DNA from: Escherichia phage vB_EcoP_PAS59
Length of the DNA: 64,000 bases
Direction: 5' to 3' (one strand)
Sequence record: OQ921332.1
The notes under the pieces are model-generated. The model worked only from the letters and a program-made list of their open reading frames with translations. It made no database searches and had not been told where the DNA came from. The position numbers and the translations under genes were made by a program. Positions 7,975 to 33,075 of the stretch are shown piece by piece (within the stretch, counting starts at the first letter, position 1; the number at the start of each line of letters is the position of its first letter).

Positions 7975-8204
7975 TGAAAATTAATCTCTTCTCTGTAGTT
8001 GTTACTAAAAAGCTCAGTGAGTTACGTCCGGGCGATGTATTCCGTTTACCGACTAACTCTGAAAATGTCTACCTAAAGACAGACACTAGACTTAACGATA
8101 TGCATCGTGTGGTTGGTCTTAGTCAGGGGACACTGTTCCAATTACAGGAAGACCATGAAGTTATCCCTGTACCTGATGTTCAAGTAACTCATATCAATGG
8201 TTAA
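7974..8204 (+). CDS. small protein, GDxF paralog family
   Basis: ORF track 7971..8204; PGDVFR ... IPVP shared with 13948..14199. Confidence 0.5.
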   Translation: MKINLFSVVVTKKLSELRPGDVFRLPTNSENVYLKTDTRLNDMHRVVGLSQGTLFQLQEDHEVIPVPDVQVTHING

Positions 8205-8206
8205 GT

Positions 8207-8340
8207 AACATCGACTTATAGCCCTTGTGTTTATCAGAGGGCTATGTGAGGGTGTTCCTCAATTAACTATAATCTCAACGCCATATGGCTCACCGCTAGG
8301 GCGAGACTTGTCTCAAACATCCGGTGATAGACTAAAACCT
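8207..8340 (+). repeat. conserved intergenic element, copy 1 (perfect 8-bp hairpin 8218-8245 plus ~90 nt of conserved sequence)
   Basis: near-identical to 14201-14340, including ATAGCCCT-loop-AGGGCTATGTGAG and CTCAAACATCCG. Confidence 0.55.
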
Positions 8341-8510
8341 GTTAATTTTCGAACAGCTTTCCGATATGTAGGGGTATGTATCGGTTTGGGATAGAGAACA
8401 ATCTAGGGGTAGAGAGTTCTCGACAGTTAGTACAAGCGGAAGCCTTAACGTGTAGGGCTTCCCTTTATATTAACTGGCAAACCTGCCTCCACCAACAAAG
8501 AGAGAACGAT

Positions 8511-8651
8511 ATGAAGAAGACAACCAAACGTATGAACCGTCCTGAACGTATGGATGCAGTAGCAAATGGTGCTCTGAAGATTGAGTCTGCCATGCTTCGT
8601 CTGACAACTAACATCCGTAAGCGTCAAGGTGATTGGTTCTACGGTGGATAA
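8511..8651 (+). CDS. hypothetical small basic protein
   Basis: internal ATG of ORF track 8376..8651 behind AGAGAGAA. Confidence 0.3.
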   Translation: MKKTTKRMNRPERMDAVANGALKIESAMLRLTTNIRKRQGDWFYGG

Positions 8652-8734
8652 TTAATAATGGGCTGCCCTTCGGGGTGGCCTTTGTTGTTTTAATTAAGGG
8701 ACAACTCTTAATTAAACTAACAAGAGAGGTTGAT

Positions 8735-8986
8735 ATGTTCAATCGTTTATTTGACCGTAAAGGTCGCACTGACATACTGATACCCTCTATCGGTGTGCCA
8801 GCTAAGTTCGGTGAGATACGTGCTGGTGATTTCTTCATGGAATCAGGTCGTCTTCATCTGAAGATTAATCTTGAACACGCTGTAGAAATCCTCAGTGATG
8901 ATAAGCCAATCATTGGCACTTCGGTGTACAGTGCAAACCATACTGTATTTGTTGTCAACGTCCAGATTGAGATTAAAAAGCCATGA
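8735..8986 (+). CDS. small protein, GDxF paralog family
   Basis: ORF track 8633..8986, start moved to ATG 8735 behind AGAGAGG; AGDFF motif. Confidence 0.45.
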   Translation: MFNRLFDRKGRTDILIPSIGVPAKFGEIRAGDFFMESGRLHLKINLEHAVEILSDDKPIIGTSVYSANHTVFVVNVQIEIKKP

Positions 8987-9291
8987 CAATTTCATCTTCA
9001 ACTCGCTGCAATCCTAATGTAGATATCCGTGCTCAAATGTCTAAGATGCCCGGTGTTACTCATTTAGAGTTCACCTACAGTCACTCGCGGTATGAACCGG
9101 GCTTTACTGTGGTAATAAAATCTCCGTGGTTAACAATGACATTGTTCTCGGATGAAGTTGAGAAGGCGGTGAATGGTATTAAGTCAGGCGGACTTAAACT
9201 TTTATCCACTGAACTGGCTGATGAGTTCATGCCTCTTATCCGTAAAGGTGTGGCTAAAATGAACAAAATGATGGAGGCTGCAAAGCAATGA
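8983..9291 (+). CDS. hypothetical protein
   Basis: ORF track; ATGA overlap. Confidence 0.45.
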   Translation: MTISSSTRCNPNVDIRAQMSKMPGVTHLEFTYSHSRYEPGFTVVIKSPWLTMTLFSDEVEKAVNGIKSGGLKLLSTELADEFMPLIRKGVAKMNKMMEAAKQ

Positions 9292-9542
9292 CAAACTTCC
9301 GAGCAGCAGTTATTACGAAAGTAATAGCAGTTGGTGATGTAATGATGCAAGTTCCTCTGAACACTCGTTACATTGCCATTGACCGAATGGGTTATGTGTG
9401 GGCTTGGAAGTGGAAGCCTACTTACAATGAACTGTTCGACGAATACCAGTGCGCTGGGCCTTACATGCCAACGTTGGTTGGTGTGTATGAAGACGGTCCT
9501 TGTCGTACTCCTCAGTTAATTGAACTACCGGCGTGTGCTTAG
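9288..9542 (+). CDS. hypothetical protein
   Basis: ORF track. Confidence 0.45.
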   Translation: MTNFRAAVITKVIAVGDVMMQVPLNTRYIAIDRMGYVWAWKWKPTYNELFDEYQCAGPYMPTLVGVYEDGPCRTPQLIELPACA

Positions 9543-9543
9543 T

Positions 9544-9708
9544 ATGATTAAATGGTTCAAGCGTCTTGTGCATCTGCATGATTGGGTAATCCTTGAAAAA
9601 TATACGCTGAAGATTACTGACGATCACGGTGGGACAAAGCACAAAGGTCTTCGCTATATTATGCAGTGTAAAGTGTGTGGTCATGTTACCAAGCGTGACA
9701 TGATCTAA
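9544..9708 (+). CDS. small zinc-ribbon-like protein (tandem paralog 1 of 3)
   Basis: MIKWFKRL...CKVCGH; internal ATG of ORF track 9520..9708. Confidence 0.45.
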   Translation: MIKWFKRLVHLHDWVILEKYTLKITDDHGGTKHKGLRYIMQCKVCGHVTKRDMI

Positions 9709-9717
9709 GGGATCATT

Positions 9718-9882
9718 ATGATTAAATGGTTCAAGCGTCTCTTTCATTTCCATGAGTGGGAAGATCTTTCTACTTATGAATTGACGATCACAAATAAACT
9801 TACTGACAGAGAGCGACAAGGGTTGCGTATCTACTCTCGCTGTAAAGTGTGTGGTCTGCACAAGAAAACAGATTTGATCTAA
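9718..9882 (+). CDS. small zinc-ribbon-like protein (tandem paralog 2 of 3)
   Basis: 54-aa ORF below the track cutoff; MIKWFKRL...CKVCGL. Confidence 0.4.
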   Translation: MIKWFKRLFHFHEWEDLSTYELTITNKLTDRERQGLRIYSRCKVCGLHKKTDLI

Positions 9883-9890
9883 GGGGTGTT

Positions 9891-10100
9891 ATGTTCTTTC
9901 GTAAGAAAAAGCCCGAAGATTCTGGATGTAAACATGAATGGGTGGTCACTGAAAACTTACATATCACTCACGCTAAAGACACTCCAGTAGAGAGAAAAGA
10001 ATCTCGTGTATCTCGCATCTGTAAACACTGTTTGAAAATAGAACAGCATAAAGTTCCCGGTCATATCGGTCATGATGTGGCCTTGCGTATTTTCAGTTAA
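9891..10100 (+). CDS. small zinc-ribbon-like protein (tandem paralog 3 of 3)
   Basis: internal ATG of ORF track 9849..10100; H.W ... ICKHC. Confidence 0.4.
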   Translation: MFFRKKKPEDSGCKHEWVVTENLHITHAKDTPVERKESRVSRICKHCLKIEQHKVPGHIGHDVALRIFS

Positions 10101-10109
10101 ACAAATCCA

Positions 10110-10185
10110 GCACCCTTAGCTCAATGGACAGAGCAGCGACCTTCTAAGTCGTTGGTTACAGGTTCGAATCCTGTAGGGTGCACCA
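10110..10185 (+). tRNA. tRNA-Arg (anticodon TCT)
   Basis: hand-folded cloverleaf: acceptor GCACCCT/AGGGTGC, D-arm GCTC..GAGC, anticodon loop CTTCTAA, T-arm ACAGG-TTCGAATC-CTGT, encoded CCA. Confidence 0.85.
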
Positions 10186-10203
10186 ATCAACGTAGGAGGG
10201 TTT

Positions 10204-10344
10204 ATGACCCCTGAGTTTAATGAGTGGTTCGATGATATCTTTACTTCTCCTTTGTTCAGCGAAGAAGAAAGAGAAGAACTTAAAACCTACCTATGGATGG
10301 CTTGGCGAGATAGCCGCCGTAAGGCGCTTCAGGAGGGATCATGA
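10204..10344 (+). CDS. small protein (46 aa), paralog of 11879..12010
   Basis: EWF...EELKTY.W.AWRDSRRK shared; below the track cutoff. Confidence 0.4.
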   Translation: MTPEFNEWFDDIFTSPLFSEEEREELKTYLWMAWRDSRRKALQEGS

Positions 10345-17962: not shown

Positions 17963-18589
17963 GTGAGCTTGTTAAGAGATTTTCAACACTATTATTGTGG
18001 AACATGGATTGCTCAGCGATCACCTGATGGTAAAAACCTCCCTCTATATGTGCTTGATGTTCGTCAGCAAGGTAACTTTGATATCGACGACTACTCACAC
18101 GACGCTGAAAGGTCTTTAGTGTTTGAGGCGGAACGCTGGACTAAAAACTCTGAAGGTCAGTTTGAACGTCAGATTGTTAGTAATATCCCAGTGTTTGATC
18201 ACAGCCTCATTCTAGAGTCTCCAGATGTAGGATACCTTCAGCATGGTAATAACATGGTGAGCTGGACCCATATCAACCCTGTTCGTCAGCGAGCTAAAGG
18301 CTTGATGGGGAATAAACTTCGTGGTGCTGCACCTTCTCTCGGACGTTCGATTCCGGGTGATTTGGTGTACAACTTGTTTAATCCAGAGTTTGAAGGGTTG
18401 GTTACTCGTTTCATCTATATCAACCCTGTCGATGGAAAAGTGTATTACAAAGGGGCTTACGTTGGAAACGTGCTTCTTGAAGCTGGCTATGGCGACAACG
18501 GTCGCCAATCTTTAAACCTTCTGGAGAAGTTCAAGCACATTTCTTCAGACCTGTCATCATATAATGTAGAGTTGGTGGAATCACTATGA
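17963..18589 (+). CDS. protein of unknown function
   Basis: ORF track; RBS AAGGTGA. Confidence 0.5.
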   Translation: MSLLRDFQHYYCGTWIAQRSPDGKNLPLYVLDVRQQGNFDIDDYSHDAERSLVFEAERWTKNSEGQFERQIVSNIPVFDHSLILESPDVGYLQHGNNMVSWTHINPVRQRAKGLMGNKLRGAAPSLGRSIPGDLVYNLFNPEFEGLVTRFIYINPVDGKVYYKGAYVGNVLLEAGYGDNGRQSLNLLEKFKHISSDLSSYNVELVESL

Positions 18590-19686
18590 CAACCGTAGCA
18601 CAAGTTTTTGGATACCGTAACCCTCGCTTATCTGAACCGCATCCAAGCATTGCTTTTCAGTGTGGTGTTGGTATTGAGTTAGAAGTCGAAGGTACTACTG
18701 ACATTGACGTTGATATGTGGGTTTGTACTGAAGACGGCTCTCTTCGTGATGGTTGTGAGTTAGTGTGTTCACGACCTTACAACGGTGAAGAATTACTTCG
18801 TGCTATTAACAATCTGAGTGAAGCAGTACAGGATTCTGGAGCCGAGGGGACTTGGCGCTGCTCCACTCACGTTCATATGGATATGCGGGACGCTGATAGT
18901 AATATCCTTAAGAAAGTTATTCTTGGGTGGACGTTCTATGAAAAGATGATGTTCAAATGTTCTGGATATCATCGTTACCGTAGTAACTTCTGCCCAGCTT
19001 TTGCTGTTGTTCAAGCTCAAGTTATGAATGCTTCATCAGCGTTCAACCGAGATGGGGAAGATTTCTTCCGTACTCTTGTTAATAGCTGGGACAAGTATAC
19101 CTCCCTTAACCTGTTGCCTCTATCTCAGTTTGGTTCTGTTGAGTTTCGTATTTCAGAGCCGAAGTGGAAAAAGAGTCAGCTGCTAAATCTGGTCAATCGC
19201 TTCTTGGTTCTCAAGAAACTGGCTGTTGAATATGCAGATTTAGATAATGAAGCTTATGTTGAGAAGTTGAATGAGCTGCGCTTCGCTCCTATGATTCAAC
19301 ATCTACCTCTAGACTATACTCCAAGAGATAGCGATCTCACTGAAGGGTATCGTCTTGCCCGTGATATTCTGTTCTGTCGTGAGCAATCTGTAACTTTGGT
19401 TGGTCGTGTTCGTGTGCAACAGACTGGCCCTGATGGTGAAGTCCTTATCAACTTACGTGACATGAATGACTTCTATGGTTTCTTGGGATATGTGCGCGGT
19501 AATGCCAACACTGTCTATGAAGAGATCATGACCTACTACACCCCTCAGATTGAAAGCACTCGAATCGCAACGGTTCGTGAAATTCGTCACATGTTTGCAT
19601 TGATGCGTGAATCAGGTAGCAGTGATAATAACATCACTGATTACATTCCAGACCATCTGGAAATGCAATTAGAACGACTGCTGTAA
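18586..19686 (+). CDS. glutamine-synthetase/GCS-like carboxylate-amine ligase (amidoligase), putative
   Basis: ORF track; motifs GIELEVEG, CSTHVHMD, SVEFRISE. Confidence 0.45.
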   Translation: MTTVAQVFGYRNPRLSEPHPSIAFQCGVGIELEVEGTTDIDVDMWVCTEDGSLRDGCELVCSRPYNGEELLRAINNLSEAVQDSGAEGTWRCSTHVHMDMRDADSNILKKVILGWTFYEKMMFKCSGYHRYRSNFCPAFAVVQAQVMNASSAFNRDGEDFFRTLVNSWDKYTSLNLLPLSQFGSVEFRISEPKWKKSQLLNLVNRFLVLKKLAVEYADLDNEAYVEKLNELRFAPMIQHLPLDYTPRDSDLTEGYRLARDILFCREQSVTLVGRVRVQQTGPDGEVLINLRDMNDFYGFLGYVRGNANTVYEEIMTYYTPQIESTRIATVREIRHMFALMRESGSSDNNITDYIPDHLEMQLERLL

Positions 19687-19763
19687 CACAATGGGCGCTC
19701 TGATAAAGGGCGCATTTAAAGGTTAATTAGATGAAAGGGTTTACCCTTCAGGTGGATTAGAAA

Positions 19764-21797
19764 ATTTGTGGTATCGTATTAGCTGGCGGCAACATGACCT
19801 CAACAGATTTGGATATTTTCAACCAACTTCTGTATGCTGGTGTTTTCCGTGGACAGCACTCAACTGGTGTGTTTGGTCAGCGTAAAGGTGAAAAGCAAGT
19901 CTTCTCTTATAAAGAAGCTCTTCCTTCTTATGCTTTTATGCTCCAGACAGAATATACAAATATTACCAAAGGGCTTACGAACTACGTAGTTCCTCCTTCG
20001 TGGATTGTTGGTCACAGCCGACATGCCACTCGTGGGGCTGTCAATGCTCGAAATGCTCACCCATTTACTCACGGGGATATTACTCTGGTTCATAATGGAA
20101 CCCTGTTAGATCAAGATCTCCTTCCTGACAGTAAGCGTTTCGAAGTTGATAGTGAAAACATCTGCCACTCAATTAATACCATTGGAGCAGCAGAGACTAT
20201 CCAAAAACTGGATGGTGCATTCACTTTGATTTGGCATGATGCTAAAGACAACACGCTTCACATTATCCGTAATGATGAGCGTCCTTTCCACCTAGCCCGT
20301 TGTGGTTTAGATTGGTTTGGGGCTTCTGAAGAAGCTATGCTTATGTGGATTTTAGAGCGTTCTAAATCCCACAAGAACCGTATCAATGACCACTTCGAAT
20401 GTAAAGTGGGAACTGAGTATATCTTTGATGTGTCTAACAGTCGTATGACTCTGGTTCAAGAGGTGGAGCACAAGCTTCCGGTTTTTACGATAACGAGTCG
20501 CTGGGGCGGCTATTACTCGAACTCCTCTCTATATCAGAACCGACAGACAAACAAATCAAGCAGCAGCACAAGCGACATTTACGGAAACAAAGACGACAAG
20601 CCCGGCGTGACAAGCGGAGACATTCGTCGTCGTAAAGCGATTGAAGACCAGAACAAACTGGCTGCCGATCGTGGTCTTCCTTATCGTCGTGATGGTCGTG
20701 TGGATATTATTCCTCACGAGTTCCATGCTTATAACAACACAGATCGTGGTAAGATGGTTGGTTACATCTACGACGATAAAGCCCAAGAGTATGTCGAAGG
20801 GGATGTTCACAACGTAGCCAAAGATGAATATCTTAAGGCTCTTGAAAACCCAAAGGTAGTATATCGCGGGACGATTGCTTGTATCTCCGAAGTGGACAGT
20901 ATGATTCGCCTCGTACTAACTTCAGGGCTGTTTGTTGATGCTACAGATAAGGAGCCTCAAAGCACTACTGCTGATTTTGATGATGATATCCCTTTTGATG
21001 CAGAGGACTCCTTCATCACTAAAAATGGTGTAGAAGTCACTCGTAAGTTCTGGGAATCTCACTCTCATGGAGATTGTGGTGGCTGTGATAAGCACATTGA
21101 CTGGAAAGATGCTCGTAAGGCTGTGTTTGCTTACCAAGCGTACTGGCATCCAGAATGCTTCGAAGCGTTGTCTAAAACCTCTGAAGAGGAAGAAGACGTA
21201 CCTTTGGGTGTATGTGCTGTCTGTGGTGAAGTCAAGACTGATTTCGAGTTTGACAACGAAATGAGTAAACTTCGTGGTGAAGATATTTGTTATATCTGCT
21301 CCAAAGAAATCAAAGATAAAGTAAAAAATGTTACTCTGTCTGAAGGTTATATTTGGACTAAAGCAGTAGACACAACTAATCCGCGTCGTCCTGAAGTGGC
21401 TGTTCGTGTTGATGAACGTATGCTTAGCCGTATGATTGTAATGGTCAGCTCAGCAAAACGTTCAGGGGATATTACACTCGCAGATGTTCCTAACTCATAT
21501 TTGGAAAAACGTGGTGGCGATACTTATGCCATTTCCGTTTACGGTCCAAAGAATGCCCCAAAGGAGGTACCCGCTGAGAAAGCGGAGACATTTCCAGAAA
21601 AATCAACCTCTCTCCGAAAAACAGTTGTCAGTTATGACGGACAACGAACAGCTGAGTTCACAAAAGCCCTCTGGACTTCAATTGGGTTTTGTGCAGTCTG
21701 TTATAAACAAATTCCGTGGCGTGATGCAGAAACTTGCTCACTAAACAAAGAAAATAGAGTGATCTGTAATTCAGATTACTGTAAAGGTAAACACTAA
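19764..21797 (+). CDS. class-II (Ntn) glutamine amidotransferase with Cys-rich C-terminal extension; start proposed at ATT 19764
   Basis: ORF track gives 19794..21797, but the in-frame codons just upstream encode (I)CGIVLAGGN, the canonical N-terminal Cys of PurF/GlmS-type amidotransferases; RGQ motif; C-terminal CxxC clusters. Confidence 0.5.
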   Translation: MCGIVLAGGNMTSTDLDIFNQLLYAGVFRGQHSTGVFGQRKGEKQVFSYKEALPSYAFMLQTEYTNITKGLTNYVVPPSWIVGHSRHATRGAVNARNAHPFTHGDITLVHNGTLLDQDLLPDSKRFEVDSENICHSINTIGAAETIQKLDGAFTLIWHDAKDNTLHIIRNDERPFHLARCGLDWFGASEEAMLMWILERSKSHKNRINDHFECKVGTEYIFDVSNSRMTLVQEVEHKLPVFTITSRWGGYYSNSSLYQNRQTNKSSSSTSDIYGNKDDKPGVTSGDIRRRKAIEDQNKLAADRGLPYRRDGRVDIIPHEFHAYNNTDRGKMVGYIYDDKAQEYVEGDVHNVAKDEYLKALENPKVVYRGTIACISEVDSMIRLVLTSGLFVDATDKEPQSTTADFDDDIPFDAEDSFITKNGVEVTRKFWESHSHGDCGGCDKHIDWKDARKAVFAYQAYWHPECFEALSKTSEEEEDVPLGVCAVCGEVKTDFEFDNEMSKLRGEDICYICSKEIKDKVKNVTLSEGYIWTKAVDTTNPRRPEVAVRVDERMLSRMIVMVSSAKRSGDITLADVPNSYLEKRGGDTYAISVYGPKNAPKEVPAEKAETFPEKSTSLRKTVVSYDGQRTAEFTKALWTSIGFCAVCYKQIPWRDAETCSLNKENRVICNSDYCKGKH

Positions 21798-21808
21798 GAG
21801 GTATAGTT

Positions 21809-22042
21809 ATGGAAGTTCGTAAACTGATGTTGGATAACGTGGTAACTACCCGTCGTATTCCGATGACAAGCACAGGATGTGATAACCTCCGAGCAATTCA
21901 GAAGTGGATGCAAGAAGGTATTGGGAAGCTGGTTGACTCTCCAGTAGAAATCCCTTTTCCAACCGTTATCAATAACGTGTTGGCTGACTATGTTAAAATG
22001 AAGGGGATTAAAGTTGAGCCTCATGTCAAGCAAGGGAGCTAA
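21809..22042 (+). CDS. hypothetical small protein
   Basis: ORF track. Confidence 0.35.
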   Translation: MEVRKLMLDNVVTTRRIPMTSTGCDNLRAIQKWMQEGIGKLVDSPVEIPFPTVINNVLADYVKMKGIKVEPHVKQGS

Positions 22043-22244
22043 GCCTCACCTGACAATGCTGGAGTATCAACAACTCCGACTTCAACAACTGGTAACGGAG
22101 CAGCGAAAGCTGTATCCGTTTGCTTTTAACTTAATCGACTCTCCAAGTGATGCCCAAGAAGACGAAATGTTCGCCGAGTATTGGGCAATCGAAGCTAAAA
22201 TTCAATCCTGTCGTAACGAAATTCTTAAACTAAAAGGTATCTAA
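22014..22244 (+). CDS. hypothetical small protein
   Basis: ORF track. Confidence 0.3.
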   Translation: MSLMSSKGAKPHLTMLEYQQLRLQQLVTEQRKLYPFAFNLIDSPSDAQEDEMFAEYWAIEAKIQSCRNEILKLKGI

Positions 22245-22246
22245 AA

Positions 22247-23494
22247 ATGACTACTCGTATCCGTGTTCTTCCGTATGGCCCGTCTGATTCTGTTAACGCT
22301 CTGGTATCTGCTATCAGTGATACTATCCGTGATGAACGTATCAACGCTAACATAATGGGTCTTCTTTCAGAGAACAGTCGCTGGCGTTCTCGTGAGGATG
22401 ATGTGGTTGTGAACTACGGGAACCGTCGCTATCCTGAATCCTTCTTTGGTTCTGCAACTGTCCTTAACCGTACCGCAGCCTTACATATGGCAGCGAACAA
22501 ACGTCGTGCTTTCAGCGTGATGGACCAAGCAGGTGTTAAAACTGTTGAGTATACAGATGTTCAAGAGATTGCTCAGGAGTGGTCAAACTCTGGCAACATT
22601 GTGTATGAACGTCATGAACTGACTGGTCACTCTGGTTCGGGTATCGTTGTTGTTGAGCCTCGTGATTCAATTGGTCAAGCTGAACTGTACACCAAAGGTA
22701 TTCAAGGTCCACGTCGTGAATGGCGTGTCCATGTGTTCAAAGGTGTTATCACCTATGTTCAGAAGAAGATTCGTCGTAACGGCTATCGTGAAGACCCTAA
22801 CTATCGTGAAGATGTTCGTAACCATCACACTGGTTGGGTTTACTCAAGTTCCTTCACAGACGCTCCAAATGATGCATCTCTGATCAACGCAGTGAAGGCC
22901 GTTGAATCGATGGGTCTGGATTTTGGTGCAGTTGATATCATTACCAAAGGCCGAGAAGCATGGGTACTGGAAGTTAACACAGCACCGGGCCTGACTGGTA
23001 CAACTCTGGATATCTACCGTCACAACATCCTTGAGTTTGTTAAAGCTCAAAATCCTCTCTATACTCCTCAGTATAAAGTGGGTTACCAGACTCCTGTTGA
23101 AGCTCCAATCGAAGACGGAGATGGAGAGTTGGTAGATGACAGCGAAAGCGCTAATGATGAAAACTTTGCACTGGAAGGTCAGGTAGCACAGCCGGTTGAG
23201 TTGGTAGATGTAGTTCCTGAAGAGATGCAACTGGAAGGTCAGATGAATACTCAAACTATTCGTAATGCACCTACTGGTTACACTTTATCTCGTGGTTATT
23301 GGATTGCAGATATCCGTCATGTCCATAACAACCTGCAACCGAATGCAATGTCTTCCAATGTCATTTTGTTCTGTGATGGTCGTAACTTCTACCGTAGTGG
23401 CTGGAACGTTCCGGTCAATCCAGTCCAGATTCATAACCCTCGCAAGTTAGAATCTGTCAATGTTGAAGGTAGCGAAGTAGCAGTAACTCTGTAA
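22247..23494 (+). CDS. ATP-grasp ligase (RimK-like) with acidic C-terminal extension
   Basis: ORF track; ERHELTGHSGSGIVVVEP, EWRVHVFKG, DFGAVDII...WVLEVNTAPG. Confidence 0.55.
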   Translation: MTTRIRVLPYGPSDSVNALVSAISDTIRDERINANIMGLLSENSRWRSREDDVVVNYGNRRYPESFFGSATVLNRTAALHMAANKRRAFSVMDQAGVKTVEYTDVQEIAQEWSNSGNIVYERHELTGHSGSGIVVVEPRDSIGQAELYTKGIQGPRREWRVHVFKGVITYVQKKIRRNGYREDPNYREDVRNHHTGWVYSSSFTDAPNDASLINAVKAVESMGLDFGAVDIITKGREAWVLEVNTAPGLTGTTLDIYRHNILEFVKAQNPLYTPQYKVGYQTPVEAPIEDGDGELVDDSESANDENFALEGQVAQPVELVDVVPEEMQLEGQMNTQTIRNAPTGYTLSRGYWIADIRHVHNNLQPNAMSSNVILFCDGRNFYRSGWNVPVNPVQIHNPRKLESVNVEGSEVAVTL

Positions 23495-27006: not shown

Positions 27007-28479
27007 ATGATTAAGATTCCATTATCTGAATTGAACCTTCAAGAAGGAGAAGCCCTCAGTGTAGGGCTTGACCTGATTCGTAATTTGATCAGAGATAACG
27101 TAGTCCCTGATGGCATCTATCCTGTTATTGCAGGTGGTGCTATCCGTGATACGTTCTTTCAAAATAGAACTCCGAATGATGTTGATATCTTCCTAGTTCA
27201 AGGAGGATTACGTTGGAACGCTCGTCAGGAAAATAGCCCTGCTAACGTAGGTAATGCTGCACTTTTCCTTGACAACTTCTTATCTTGGACAGAAAGTAAA
27301 GGGCTTCAGGTTACATCTCGACTAATTCAGCCTGTTAACGGGACAACCTATGCTGAAGCGCTTTTCACTTTCCAAGAGATTCTGGAAATCGAGATTGATC
27401 AAGTTAAAATCCAGATGATGATTAATCTACCTTTGGATATGGATACTTTAAGCCGTCGCTTCCCTATGATCTGTCAAGGGTTTATGACTCTTGGTAATCT
27501 GTATGTGTCAAACGAAGGTTTGTTTGCAATGTCATACACTCGTGACATTCCTGTGGTGTCCAGTCGTGAAATGAAGTATGTTCACAAGAAGTGGCCTGAA
27601 GCAACTGTTGCAGTTTATAGCAGTTCTACCGAATATATGCACCTTGCAATGGGAGCTTTCGGTGAGCCAGAAGTTCACCTGATTAGTGATTTAGTTGGAC
27701 CTATGGCTGGTGTAAATTTATATCAGAATCAGCGTCGTCATTATACCCTGAAGATGATGGAAACTACATTAAACATTCCTCAGGAAAGGGGTCGTAGTTA
27801 TCTGGACGAGGAAGTTAACCTACAGACAGAATGGTCTAGTGGATTAACCACTATAGGTGCTGAAGCAATTACACGACCTTGGACTCCGGGAACTAACAGA
27901 CGAGATCTTCAAGCTTTTAATGAAGAAACTTCTCGAACTGTTCGAGGAGGTGTTGTAGGGTATAACGTACAACCTCATGAAAGACCTCGTGATACTTTCA
28001 CTGGTAGTTTTGGTAGTGCACACTCTTCTGGAATGGATACTCGTACATGGCATGTCCAAGGAGGAACTGCTCGTCCTATTCCCTCTCCGTCAATGGATGA
28101 TTTGCAGCGTTCTCGTCGTTCATGGGAAACAGTAAGCTCTGTTGTTCAGGGTCTACGTGCTAGTGATATTGAACGTGTAGAAGTTGGTGATTTGCCAACC
28201 TCTACAGAAGATCGAGTATCAGCTATAGCGGCTCGTGAAGCTGCTCATATTGGTTTTGCATCATTAGCTAATGACGCTAACGAAGCTCCTCGACCTGTTG
28301 GTCGTCGTAATGGTCTAGCTCACTCTGACACTGCACTTGGTGCAGAACTACGAGCAGCAGCTCGTGAGCTATCTGGTGAGCTTCACAACAACCTGGCAGG
28401 TGTTACACTATCTCGTGAAACAGCTCGTAATATGATTAATAATTTGGCATCATCTGTACAAGGAAACAGAAACTCATGA
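27007..28479 (+). CDS. Pol-beta superfamily nucleotidyltransferase (CCA-adding/poly(A) polymerase-like head) with low-complexity C-terminal half
   Basis: ORF track; GGAIRDTFFQNRTPNDVDIF matches the GGxVRD...DxD signature. Confidence 0.5.
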   Translation: MIKIPLSELNLQEGEALSVGLDLIRNLIRDNVVPDGIYPVIAGGAIRDTFFQNRTPNDVDIFLVQGGLRWNARQENSPANVGNAALFLDNFLSWTESKGLQVTSRLIQPVNGTTYAEALFTFQEILEIEIDQVKIQMMINLPLDMDTLSRRFPMICQGFMTLGNLYVSNEGLFAMSYTRDIPVVSSREMKYVHKKWPEATVAVYSSSTEYMHLAMGAFGEPEVHLISDLVGPMAGVNLYQNQRRHYTLKMMETTLNIPQERGRSYLDEEVNLQTEWSSGLTTIGAEAITRPWTPGTNRRDLQAFNEETSRTVRGGVVGYNVQPHERPRDTFTGSFGSAHSSGMDTRTWHVQGGTARPIPSPSMDDLQRSRRSWETVSSVVQGLRASDIERVEVGDLPTSTEDRVSAIAAREAAHIGFASLANDANEAPRPVGRRNGLAHSDTALGAELRAAARELSGELHNNLAGVTLSRETARNMINNLASSVQGNRNS

Positions 28480-29009: not shown

Positions 29010-29027
29010 CTGATGGAGTTTGGAACA

Positions 29028-29225
29028 ATGAAAAGACGTTGGGTTGTTCGTGTTCACTGGAGCAGTGGTACAGAATCAATGGGTATCAGAAACACTCGTC
29101 AAGAAGCTCGCGCTCATAAGAAGTTCCTATTAAGCTGCGAAAGTACTATTGACAAGATCACTATCCACAAAGCTCAGGACTTTAAATCAGGTCGTTTCTA
29201 TATCAGCGGAAAGGTACATTACTAA
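29028..29225 (+). CDS. small protein (tandem paralog 1, ends KVHY)
   Basis: internal ATG of ORF track 29013..29225; W.VRV.W...TRQEAR shared with next gene. Confidence 0.4.
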   Translation: MKRRWVVRVHWSSGTESMGIRNTRQEARAHKKFLLSCESTIDKITIHKAQDFKSGRFYISGKVHY

Positions 29226-29431
29226 TGGCTAAATTATGGGCAGTTCGTGTTAAATGGGCTAACAAAGATCTCGGTGGTGACTGTCTTAAATTATTCGACA
29301 CACGACAAGAAGCTCGTCTTGCTAAGAAAGCTACAAAAGCTTTAGGACTCGCTGAAAAAGTGGATATTCATCGCTGGTTTCAAAATGATAATAACAGTGC
29401 TGGGTCCTTGACTAGCAAGGTCCACTACTAG
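29225..29431 (+). CDS. small protein (tandem paralog 2, ends KVHY)
   Basis: ORF track. Confidence 0.4.
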   Translation: MAKLWAVRVKWANKDLGGDCLKLFDTRQEARLAKKATKALGLAEKVDIHRWFQNDNNSAGSLTSKVHY

Positions 29432-29501: not shown

Positions 29502-29831
29502 ATGTTAGATTTGAGTAAAGTGGCCCCGCCATCTGAAGAGATTAGCAAAGCTAAAGTTATGCAGCAGTTCTATCATCGTGACATGCTTGGTCGTTATATC
29601 AAGAATCGTGATGTTGTTGCATGGTCTATTGGAAACCAAGGCTATCTTCTCAAAGTGTTGCAAGTTACTGGCTCAACAGCCAAGCGAGTCAAAGTCTATG
29701 ACCCTGAGATGGGGCGTTCTAAATCGGTAGACCCACAGAATTGCATTGTTATTACACAGCAGGTCATGGATAACATTGCTCGTAATGTAGCTAATTCAAC
29801 TAACTTAGAAGGGGATGCACCTAATGCATAA
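29502..29831 (+). CDS. hypothetical protein
   Basis: internal ATG of ORF track 29484..29831 behind AGGAGAGAG. Confidence 0.4.
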   Translation: MLDLSKVAPPSEEISKAKVMQQFYHRDMLGRYIKNRDVVAWSIGNQGYLLKVLQVTGSTAKRVKVYDPEMGRSKSVDPQNCIVITQQVMDNIARNVANSTNLEGDAPNA

Positions 29832-29919
29832 TAATGTCTTCGACTTACCAGAACTAACAAGAGTGGGTTCTAGTAATCCATTCTCTACTACTGATTCTTC
29901 TATCTCTCGTCTTGAGGGA

Positions 29920-30390
29920 ATGAATAAACTGATTAGCAGTAACAGCCTAGAGCACATTCTTTGTGGTGTGCAGGCTAACCTTGAACTTCTACACATCAAA
30001 GCAAAGAACTACCACTGGAACGTCTCTGGAGCTGGTTTCCAAGGTGTTCATGGGATGTTCGATGAGTTAGAAGATTATGCTCGTGAGGCAGGCGACCGAA
30101 TAGCAGAGCGTATGCGCTTCCATTGTGTTAAGGTGGATGCCACTGCTAGTAACTATTTAGGTCACGCTTGGTTCCGAGAAGGTAACGCTGATCTCGACAT
30201 GGACGGTATGCTTTCCGACATGTGCATGACTCTTATGTGTATCATTGAGAAGATGGACGAGTTTGATTCAGACTTGTGCACCTATCCAGTTGATCAGAGT
30301 ATGCTTCAAGAAATTAATGAAGGTCTTGGCAAGTTCTGTTACTTTGTCAAGAGCAACATGTCCCACTCTGGTGGTGATGTGTCTTACTAA
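29920..30390 (+). CDS. Dps-like ferritin-fold protein (start could be as early as 29815)
   Basis: ORF track 29815..30390; HIKAKNYHWNVSGAGFQGVHGMFDE...DRIAERMRF aligns with the Dps ferroxidase region. Confidence 0.5.
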   Translation: MNKLISSNSLEHILCGVQANLELLHIKAKNYHWNVSGAGFQGVHGMFDELEDYAREAGDRIAERMRFHCVKVDATASNYLGHAWFREGNADLDMDGMLSDMCMTLMCIIEKMDEFDSDLCTYPVDQSMLQEINEGLGKFCYFVKSNMSHSGGDVSY

Positions 30391-30453
30391 TCAAACCTCC
30401 GCCCTGTCTCGTTTGTTCAAGAGGTGGGGCGAACTTTTTATAAGGATGTGAAT

Positions 30454-30633
30454 ATGTTTTCAGCAATCGTATGGTCTGTGTGGGCAATTCTTGTTGGCGG
30501 TATCGTTTATCTGGCTCAGAAGCAGATGCTTAAAGAGAATCCGAATGATGCCAAACCTATTAAACATGGTAGCATTGCTCTGGTAGTTTTCTCTGTTGTC
30601 ATTCCTTTCCTTCTCCACCTGTTGACTGCATAA
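30454..30633 (+). CDS. small membrane protein (tandem paralog 1)
   Basis: internal ATG of ORF track 30424..30633; IVW.VW.I.VG.VIY...KENP. Confidence 0.4.
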   Translation: MFSAIVWSVWAILVGGIVYLAQKQMLKENPNDAKPIKHGSIALVVFSVVIPFLLHLLTA

Positions 30634-30642
30634 GGGTTTGAT

Positions 30643-30828
30643 ATGATTTCACTGATTGTGTGGGCCGTGTGGTCGTTAATAGTTGGTACTGTTATATATA
30701 AAGCTCGAAATTTAGCAATTAAAGAAAACCCAGCAGAAGAGGATGTTAAAGCTATCAAGCTAGGTAGTGTTGTTCTGGTACATTTTGCTATAACACTACC
30801 TCTTGTTATTATTCTTTGTATGCTATAA
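30643..30828 (+). CDS. small membrane protein (tandem paralog 2)
   Basis: ORF track. Confidence 0.4.
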   Translation: MISLIVWAVWSLIVGTVIYKARNLAIKENPAEEDVKAIKLGSVVLVHFAITLPLVIILCML

Positions 30829-32754: not shown

Positions 32755-33075
32755 ATGATCAACGATAGTACATTTAGGACTGGTAACGGAAATGAAATCA
32801 GTCCTGCTGAAGTGATTAAACGACACAGAACACAGATGCTTATCCACTCCTATTTGTATTATTGGTTGGATGACCCAATCTGGTCTGACGATAAGTGGCA
32901 ACAAGTGGCTGATGACTTAACCACCTTGCAAGAGATGTATCCTGAGCCTATTGGATTCTTCGATTCAGAGTTCAATGGATGGAATGGCTCCACTGGTATG
33001 CATCTTCCTCATGACGAGCGTATAGCTTGTATGGCTACTGAAGTATACCGTTTACATAAGGACAAATCAATCTGA
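32755..33075 (+). CDS. hypothetical protein
   Basis: ORF track. Confidence 0.45.
   Translation: MINDSTFRTGNGNEISPAEVIKRHRTQMLIHSYLYYWLDDPIWSDDKWQQVADDLTTLQEMYPEPIGFFDSEFNGWNGSTGMHLPHDERIACMATEVYRLHKDKSI

Follow-up and report, generated by a model that had tools for sequence, protein, structure and literature searches.

The dps locus

The window (the whole 64,000-nucleotide stretch analysed here, from Escherichia phage vB_EcoP_PAS59, record OQ921332.1) carries a gene for a Dps-type mini-ferritin that begins within the last codons of a small upstream gene. At the DNA level the region 29000-31500 matches 98 phage records in a megablast search, nearly all of them Escherichia or Shigella phages, the best being Bas86 (94.2%) and vB_EcoP_SU7 (93.3%; genus Suseptimavirus, subfamily Gordonclarkvirinae). 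These matches identify the window as a phiEco32-like (Kuravirus/Suseptimavirus) prolate podophage of E. coli. The following features were recognised at the locus:

29502..29831 (+), homologue of gp68, an ORF of 109 aa (PHROG 10984, 'unknown function') whose stop overlaps the dps start
29808..29815 (+), Shine-Dalgarno-like GAAGGGGA, read from the sequence, 8 nt upstream of ATG 29824
29824..30390 (+), Dps-family CDS, 188 aa plus stop (ORF list, start context, annotated homologues)
29824..29937 (+), N-terminal extension, aa 1-38, present only in the Kuravirus-like clade (alignment, pLDDT, charge)
29938..30354 (+), Dps core, aa 39-177 (AlphaFold, Foldseek, HMM alignment)
30400..30439 (+), possible intrinsic terminator (pattern scan; 11-bp stem at 30400-30431 followed by a UUUUU run)

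The peptide that had drawn attention to this locus, HIKAKNYHWNVSGAGFQGVHGMFDE...DRIAERMRF, is encoded at nucleotides 29992-30120 within the ORF 29815..30390 (+). The first-pass annotation had started the gene at 29920 (MNKL...), which turns out to be an internal methionine of the longer CDS 29824..30390, since two motifs encoded upstream of it (NxFDLP and S/G-R-L-D/E) are kept in homologues. ATG 29824 overlaps the stop of the upstream ORF (ATGCATAA) and is the start annotated in SU7, whose record also has a ribosome-binding site at the matching place; the phiEco32 CDS is of matching length. In Bas86 the start is placed at ATG 29815, which leaves no spacer after the Shine-Dalgarno-like site. 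Shine-Dalgarno spacing, annotated starts and the conserved upstream motifs thus together favour ATG 29824 over 29920. The resulting product has 188 aa, a mass of 21.1 kDa, a pI of 4.8, a net charge of -14 and six cysteines. Between its stop and the next ORF (ATG 30454) lies a 63-nt gap that holds the terminator candidate, a hairpin with a folding energy of -16.2 kcal/mol but a z-score of only -1.9, which makes it statistically weak.

Family membership and predicted fold

Sequence searches, fold prediction and active-site residues agree that the gene encodes a Dps-type mini-ferritin (PF00210; IPR002177). The protein matches the Pfam Ferritin family (PF00210) with 32.9 bits against a cut-off of 24.5 (E=7e-8) and PHROG 3636, labelled 'DNA binding protein', at E=5e-53. 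About 60 PDB chains were matched by the single sequence (phmmer), nearly all of them Dps (50+), with the best E-value of 1e-9 for Mycobacterium smegmatis Dps2. A profile of 19 homologues matched solved Dps structures more strongly (best E=3e-19, Bacillus anthracis Dlp-2), in alignments that span profile positions 40-177 and so cover the entire four-helix core, indicating that the whole core is homologous to Dps, beyond the ferroxidase stretch alone. The earlier proposal of a Dps-like ferritin-fold protein is therefore borne out by an above-threshold Pfam match and by Dps matches in the PDB, and the structure prediction agrees.

The fold prediction that had been proposed as a check was carried out as an AlphaFold2 monomer model built from the 19-sequence alignment, a prediction and not an experimental structure. 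The model has a mean pLDDT of 82.5, with values of 89-97 in the core, and predicts core helices A (42-66), B (72-99), C (126-146) and D (155-177) together with a short helix in the BC loop (108-113) that is specific to Dps; a fifth, C-terminal (E) helix is absent. The best 50 Foldseek matches in the PDB are all Dps proteins with rmsd values of 1.2-2.5 A, including M. smegmatis Dps2 (8hwz, 1.2 A over 137 columns, TM 0.88-0.90) and Dlp-2 (1jig, 1.2 A).

Two other assignments were considered and rejected. A 24-mer ferritin or bacterioferritin, or a DPSL protein with an intrasubunit di-iron site, is incompatible with the lack of an ExxH motif on helix B or D and of a fifth helix; the sole ExxH in the protein (E54-H57) lies on helix A, and its histidine is not conserved, being tyrosine in most homologues. 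No ferritin or bacterioferritin chain occurred among the PDB matches of the single-sequence and profile searches. A host-derived copy of E. coli Dps was rejected on the basis of 19% identity and a score of 34.9 bits against the E. coli Dps equivalog model (NCBIfam NF006975), far below its cut-off of 114, which together speak against a recent capture of the host gene.

The ferroxidase centre

The residues that bind iron in characterised Dps proteins can be located in the window as follows:

30013..30018 (+), H64 (ferroxidase ligand; equivalent to E. coli Dps H51) and W65 (equivalent to W52), codons cac tgg
30049..30051 (+), H76 (ferroxidase ligand; equivalent to H63), codon cat
30061..30063 (+), D80 (equivalent to D67; second-shell or ligand position), codon gat
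30094..30096 (+), D91 (partner-subunit ferroxidase ligand; equivalent to D78), codon gac
30106..30108 (+), E95 (partner-subunit ferroxidase ligand; equivalent to E82), codon gag

All six residues are invariant in an alignment of 19 homologues from metagenomes and phages, the most distant of which is 39% identical. H64, W65, H76, D91 and E95 remain invariant when homologues from Grimontviridae, Lahexavirus and cyanophages and E. coli Dps itself are added to the alignment; D80 is not kept in the cyanophage homologue. The ligand spacing, H-x11-H-x14-D-x3-E, is that of E. coli Dps H51/H63/D78/E82 and also that of Dlp-2. The first-pass annotation had aligned this segment with the ferroxidase region of Dps and had named missing ligands among the results that would count against its proposal; H64, W65, H76, D91 and E95 match the E. 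coli residues, and the four metal ligands among them (H64, H76, D91 and E95) are present throughout. Their strict invariance argues for selection on catalysis. In the model the ligands lie on helices A and B, an arrangement that would fit a site at the two-fold interface between subunits. Conservation is uneven among the acidic residues of the presumed iron-entry pore (some homologues have serine in place of D157), in a region where the alignment is uncertain.

Relatives, existing annotation and selection

The Dps-family identity of this protein is already known, as phiEco32 and many relatives carry the annotation, which dates back to 2008. In RefSeq, phiEco32 gp67 (YP_001671812.1) is described as "DNA binding protein" and "member of the Dps family". 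Along with SU10 CDS67, SU7_66 and Bas86_0061 from other Kuravirus and Suseptimavirus phages, it is an orthologue of the window protein, which is 83% identical to phiEco32 gp67 over the full length and 98-99% identical to the proteins of SU7, MLP3 and IME267. The orthologues are 187-188 aa long and occupy the same slot as in the window, between gp68 and the small membrane ORFs with thioredoxin. Many GenBank records of the homologue (e.g., IME267, ES17, MLP3 and 172-1) call it an 'integrase', a label that is wrong. The literature searched contains no functional study of any phage-encoded Dps.

By tblastn the protein is found in 133 of 50,697 phage records and in essentially every sequenced relative: about 97 records are Kuravirus-like, 32 belong to Grimontviridae or Lahexavirus (phages of Aeromonas, Proteus, Salmonella and Cronobacter) and 2 are Synechococcus phages. 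These matches make the gene a signature of the prolate (C3) podophages, and its presence in all C3 phages was already noted in the study of SU10 (PMC4281155). A single-sequence search of 1.84 billion representative proteins returned only 12 at E<1e-10 and 566 at E<1e-3, and by sequence the phage clade is both small and distant from cellular Dps (at most ~43% identity).

Differences between the window protein and its phiEco32 orthologue amount to sequence drift, mostly in the N-terminal extension, which evolves much faster than the core (pN 0.33 vs 0.064). With synonymous sites saturated (pS 0.72), the core still gives a dN/dS of ~0.03 in this comparison. The Dps core is under strong purifying selection.

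The N-terminal extension and surface charge

The first 38 residues distinguish the Kuravirus-like clade, having no counterpart in the aligned homologues from Grimontviridae, Lahexavirus and cyanophages. Two motifs are conserved within them, NxFDLP (aa 3-9) and S/G-R-L-D/E (aa 27-30), and AlphaFold models the segment at pLDDT 42-61 with a low-confidence helix at 26-38. A six-frame scan of the window for [FYILV]DLP or NxFDLP at an N-terminus found it only in the Dps ORF, and thus gave no sign of a common capsid-targeting peptide.

Charge is distributed in the window protein as -1 in the 41-aa N-tail, -12 in the core and -1 in the C-tail. The pattern holds for the clade: including ~17-18 further homologues that bear the extension (24-48 aa), N-tails have a net charge of -2 to +1, C-tails of -3 to 0 and cores of -4 to -13. 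The N-tails of the Grimontviridae and Lahexavirus homologues carry +2 to +3, and that of E. coli Dps +3. The window protein thus lacks the basic Lys/Arg-rich tail or positive surface that characterises the DNA-binding subset of Dps proteins, a trait that does not define the Dps family as a whole. Without a basic tail and with an acidic core, canonical tail-mediated DNA binding is not predicted for the Kuravirus-like clade.

Genomic neighbourhood and the upstream gene gp68

The placement of the gene in a phage replication module, as the first-pass annotation had it, agrees with both flanks. Upstream lie a primase/helicase, a DNA polymerase exonuclease subunit, a nucleotidyltransferase, a dCTP deaminase, several small ORFs and gp68; downstream lie two small membrane ORFs, thioredoxin, an HNH endonuclease, ThyX, a protein with a ligase Ia domain and PhoH. 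An equivalent module surrounds dps in Privateer, SE131, ECO319P1, LAh_9 and a 101-kb metagenomic phage, and dCTP deaminase, thioredoxin, ThyX and replication genes were always found around dps in the relatives inspected. In ECO319P1, LAh_9 and the 101-kb metagenomic phage, a set that includes Lahexavirus and Crifsvirus, dps also stands beside genes for NrdD and/or NrdG. These components of the anaerobic ribonucleotide reductase are oxygen sensitive and depend on Fe-S clusters, and their proximity in several relatives speaks for the role proposed below. Neither was found in the window among the annotated ORFs or the ORFs of at least 150 aa that were scanned. That NrdD and NrdG accompany dps in relatives yet were not found in this phage is an observation that counts against a role of the protein in antioxidant iron chemistry.

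The gp68 homologue, whose stop overlaps the dps start, was detected in 130 phage records, whose hosts are those of the Dps records except that the two cyanophages are missing. In Privateer, ECO319P1, LAh_9 and the metagenomic phage L010 a homologue with 29-38% identity immediately precedes dps; SE131 and 7-11 have theirs ~1.3 kb away from dps, beside thioredoxin. The protein is more conserved than Dps (mean column identity 82% vs 57%). It has no Pfam or NCBIfam match, and a profile search of the PDB gave only spurious matches. Its AlphaFold model is of low confidence (pLDDT 64) and comprises a small beta-barrel with flanking helices, for which Foldseek retrieved only generic SH3/Tudor-like barrels at nonsignificant E-values above 0.02; the model suggests a small beta-barrel as the fold class.

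The recurrent overlap of stop and start hints at translational coupling and makes gp68 a candidate functional partner of Dps. Both are core genes of the lineage, and their co-occurrence alone is consequently weak evidence of a partnership. Neither the conserved N-terminal motifs nor the overlapping gp68 is explained by a plain ferroxidase role. One speculative possibility, to which we give little weight, is that Dps, in place of being a solitary cytoplasmic antioxidant, forms a two-protein unit with the translationally coupled gp68 beta-barrel in the prolate C3 podophages, and that in the Kuravirus-like phages the extension with its NxFDLP and GRLD motifs is a docking element that targets the iron cage. 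Such an element would have replaced the ancestral DNA-binding tail in these phages, and its candidate target sites would be the replisome, the procapsid or the virion. Docking to the virion, if true, would explain why a Dps homologue co-purifies with CsCl-banded particles (see below).

Proposed role and alternatives

We propose, with a probability of roughly 60%, that the protein acts as a dodecameric mini-ferritin that would oxidise Fe2+ with H2O2, store the iron and so suppress Fenton damage during phage DNA synthesis. That the protein is a dodecamer, has ferroxidase activity and benefits the phage is what we infer by analogy with characterised Dps proteins. The gene belongs to the middle-gene module for replication and nucleotide metabolism of a lytic phage, and its product would assemble as a hollow shell of twelve subunits. 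Two Fe2+ would be bound wherever two subunits meet at a two-fold interface, by H64 and H76 (with D80) from one and D91 and E95 from the other; H2O2 would be the preferred oxidant, and the Fe3+ mineral would be kept inside the shell. Both reactants of the Fenton reaction would in this way be removed while phage DNA and dNTPs are produced at a high rate, in a host no longer capable of mounting its own OxyR/Dps response. Since the short basic tail has been exchanged for a neutral-to-acidic extension in a protein of net charge -14, chemical protection and iron sequestration would be expected of it and not DNA coating.

The database name implies the opposite emphasis, a nucleoid-associated protein that coats or condenses phage DNA against nucleases and oxidants, or compacts the host nucleoid, iron chemistry taking second place. 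Sequence-independent DNA binding is indeed known for many Dps proteins, and M. smegmatis Dps2, the nearest solved relative in sequence, is a DNA-compacting protein; the Grimontviridae and Lahexavirus homologues have kept their short basic N-tails, and both GenBank and PHROG use the name 'DNA binding protein'. For the Kuravirus-like clade, however, this label is a transferred name and not a result, unsupported by the charges of tails and cores given above or by the pI of 4.8, and the four metal ligands, being strictly invariant, argue for selection on catalysis. We consider a primarily DNA-binding role unlikely.

Reports from phage preparations raise the question of whether the protein travels with the virion, either packaged in the prolate HK97-fold head (cf. 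the ferritin-like cargo of encapsulins) or bound to the particle, where it might guard packaged DNA or act on entry. Mass spectrometry found the Privateer homologue in CsCl-purified virions alongside ten structural proteins, in a paper that calls the function of the protein unverified (PMC7881722), a finding that a purely cytoplasmic enzyme does not predict. In SU10, CDS67 is a middle gene whose product was abundant in the phage preparation (6 peptides, 35.8% coverage; PMC4281155), so that expression at the protein level is established for this phage. That sample was, however, PEG-precipitated and not CsCl-purified, and it also contained DNA polymerase, thioredoxin and terminase (PMC4281155); a cryo-EM study of SU10 with mass spectrometry of gel bands identified gp20-24 as the ejection proteins inside the head and does not mention gp67. 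The signature status of the gene throughout the prolate lineage would suit a virion function, but it is a middle gene located in the replication module and outside the late structural module, and its N-terminal motif is shared with no other ORF of the window. Iron-loaded or DNA-bound dodecamers of 250 kDa could, moreover, plausibly co-band with phage. Taken together, we regard a virion-associated role as improbable. We are similarly disinclined to see in the protein chiefly an iron store or chaperone, handing host iron to iron-dependent phage nucleotide synthesis or to progeny components instead of serving as an antioxidant. It is suggestive that the gene has NrdD and/or the Fe-S activase NrdG as neighbours in Lahexavirus, Crifsvirus and the 101-kb metagenomic relative, and that thioredoxin is nearby in the relatives inspected. 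Kuravirus-like phages nevertheless keep dps with neither NrdD nor NrdG among the ORFs covered above, ThyX and dCTP deaminase need no iron, and a latent period lasting tens of minutes is short for storing iron and then releasing it. Least credible of all is interference with host Dps, through poisoning of its assembly or as a decoy in a host stress or defence pathway. Nothing bears it out directly beyond the general observation that diverged copies of host proteins frequently serve phages as inhibitors; the distance from E. coli Dps (19% identity, 34.9 vs 114 bits) makes mixed dodecamers unlikely, and an inhibitor would need no invariant catalytic ligands.

Comparison with characterised Dps proteins

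The mini-ferritin proposed here can be set against several solved relatives. The best single-sequence PDB matches, M. smegmatis Dps2 (2z90, 8hwz) and Dps1 (1uvh), at E ~1e-9, share ~25% identity with the phage protein and have identical ferroxidase ligands. The mycobacterial proteins bind DNA and compact it by means of their charged tails; in the phage protein the N-terminal extension is non-basic and the surface acidic. The best profile match is B. anthracis Dlp-2 (1jig; E=3e-19 over positions 40-170), with which the phage protein shares the ligand spacing. Dlp-2 and Listeria innocua Dps/Fri (1qgh) are iron-only mini-ferritins that do not bind DNA, and the lack of a basic tail suggests, by analogy, that the phage protein operates in the same mode of chemical protection only. 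Unlike these two, it contains six cysteines and begins with 38 extra residues that include conserved motifs, and it is encoded by a lytic-phage gene whose start overlaps the gp68 stop. E. coli Dps (1dps) belongs to the same fold family, with H51/W52/H63/D78/E82 aligned to H64/W65/H76/D91/E95, but the identity is 19% and its Lys-rich N-tail is missing from the phage protein. The E. coli sequence in our alignment agrees with the HMM matches to 1dps and 1f30.

Among phages, the Grimontviridae and Lahexavirus homologues (Privateer gp068, SE131 gp090, ECO319P1_00054 and LAh9_86) are 30-39% identical to the window protein and have the same ligands. They share with it the module of dCTP deaminase, thioredoxin, ThyX and the gp68 homologue, and differ in being only 146-156 aa long and in having a short basic N-tail (+2 to +3) where the clade represented in the window has its long neutral-to-acidic extension.

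As a discovery the gene matters little, given that the Dps family was recognised in phiEco32 and noted in the SU10 and Privateer papers. Its interest lies in a mini-ferritin with an intact active site, maintained under strong purifying selection across a deep lineage of lytic phages, which makes an easy target for genetics and biochemistry. The overlap with gp68 and the report from virion preparations lead to concrete hypotheses beyond simple antioxidant defence. The 'integrase' mislabel has a practical side as well, as it could lead automated safety screens to treat therapeutic kuraviruses as temperate.

Genomic Neighborhood of Dps

The gene for the phage Dps-type mini-ferritin (Dps) has tandem small ORF pairs on either side of it, and the features of this neighborhood are as follows:

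29013..29225 and 29225..29431, + strand: small ORF pair, tandem paralogues of 70 and 68 aa (33% identity, E=1e-9)
29502..29831, + strand: gp68 homologue, 109 aa (phiEco32 gp68, PHROG 10984)
30400..30439, + strand: hairpin in the gap 3' of the Dps stop codon, with an 11-bp stem containing G-U pairs, then UUUUU
30454..30633 and 30643..30828, + strand: small hydrophobic ORF pair, tandem paralogues of 59 and 61 aa (45% identity, E=2e-17)

The gp68 ORF overlaps the Dps start codon in the window, and its homologue also lies immediately 5' of Dps in Kuravirus, Privateervirus, Crifsvirus, Lahexavirus, and one metagenomic phage. The gp68 protein is better conserved than Dps itself, and its predicted fold is, with low confidence, an SH3/Tudor-like small barrel. 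Both members of the upstream pair carry the pattern W-VRV-W...TRQEAR-KK...KVHY; the phiEco32 annotation has three small ORFs here. The hydrophobic pair directly 3' of Dps probably encodes membrane proteins and is represented by one copy in phiEco32. The intervening hairpin, whose stability barely exceeds that of shuffled sequence (z = -1.9), may terminate a middle transcription unit.

In Lahexavirus, Crifsvirus, and the 101-kb metagenomic relative, Dps is found near anaerobic ribonucleotide reductase genes, comprising NrdD in all three and, in Lahexavirus, also NrdG; Lahexavirus has an ATP-cone ORF nearby as well. In the loci compared around the Dps homologue, these regions are:

L007: 1-1942 and 2929-3201
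L008: 2956-5079
L010 (the metagenomic phage): 8084-10207

An NrdD-like fragment of 98 aa directly follows Dps in the prolate podophage Privateer. The proximity of Dps to NrdD and NrdG may mean that Dps is tied to dNTP synthesis through redox chemistry or iron.

Annotation of Dps Homologues and Other ORFs

Many deposited Kuravirus genomes with GenBank matches to 29824..30390, including IME267, ES17, MLP3, 172-1, and KBNP1711, name the Dps homologue "integrase." The protein lacks integrase features, and the name looks like a propagated annotation error, one that could falsely mark lytic Kuravirus therapy candidates as temperate. Elsewhere in the window, the following ORFs were considered:

18586..23494, + strand: large-ORF cluster with matches to Amidoligase_2, class-II glutamine amidotransferase, and RimK-like ATP-grasp
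27007..28479, + strand: "nucleotidyltransferase" of the relatives' annotation, 490 aa
31310..31801, + strand: HNH_3 endonuclease ORF, 163 aa, between thioredoxin and thyX
32755..33075, + strand: "DNA ligase" of the relatives' annotation, 106 aa (PF22745, E=1e-33)

In the "DNA ligase," the match is confined to the Ia domain, the N-terminal NAD+-binding part of NAD-dependent ligases; given this restricted match and its short length, the ORF is a stand-alone Ia domain rather than a ligase. The "nucleotidyltransferase," which has no Pfam match and an apparently low-complexity C-terminal third, is of equal length in SU7 but only 437 aa in phiEco32. For the large-ORF cluster, the combination of domains, of which the RimK-like ATP-grasp match is weak, points to a system that modifies peptides or small molecules. 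The HNH_3 ORF overlaps the start of thyX and is shared at this place by SU7 and Bas86 but not by phiEco32; a mobile homing endonuclease has probably inserted here. Its name in the SU7 GenBank record, "baseplate wedge subunit," looks wrong.
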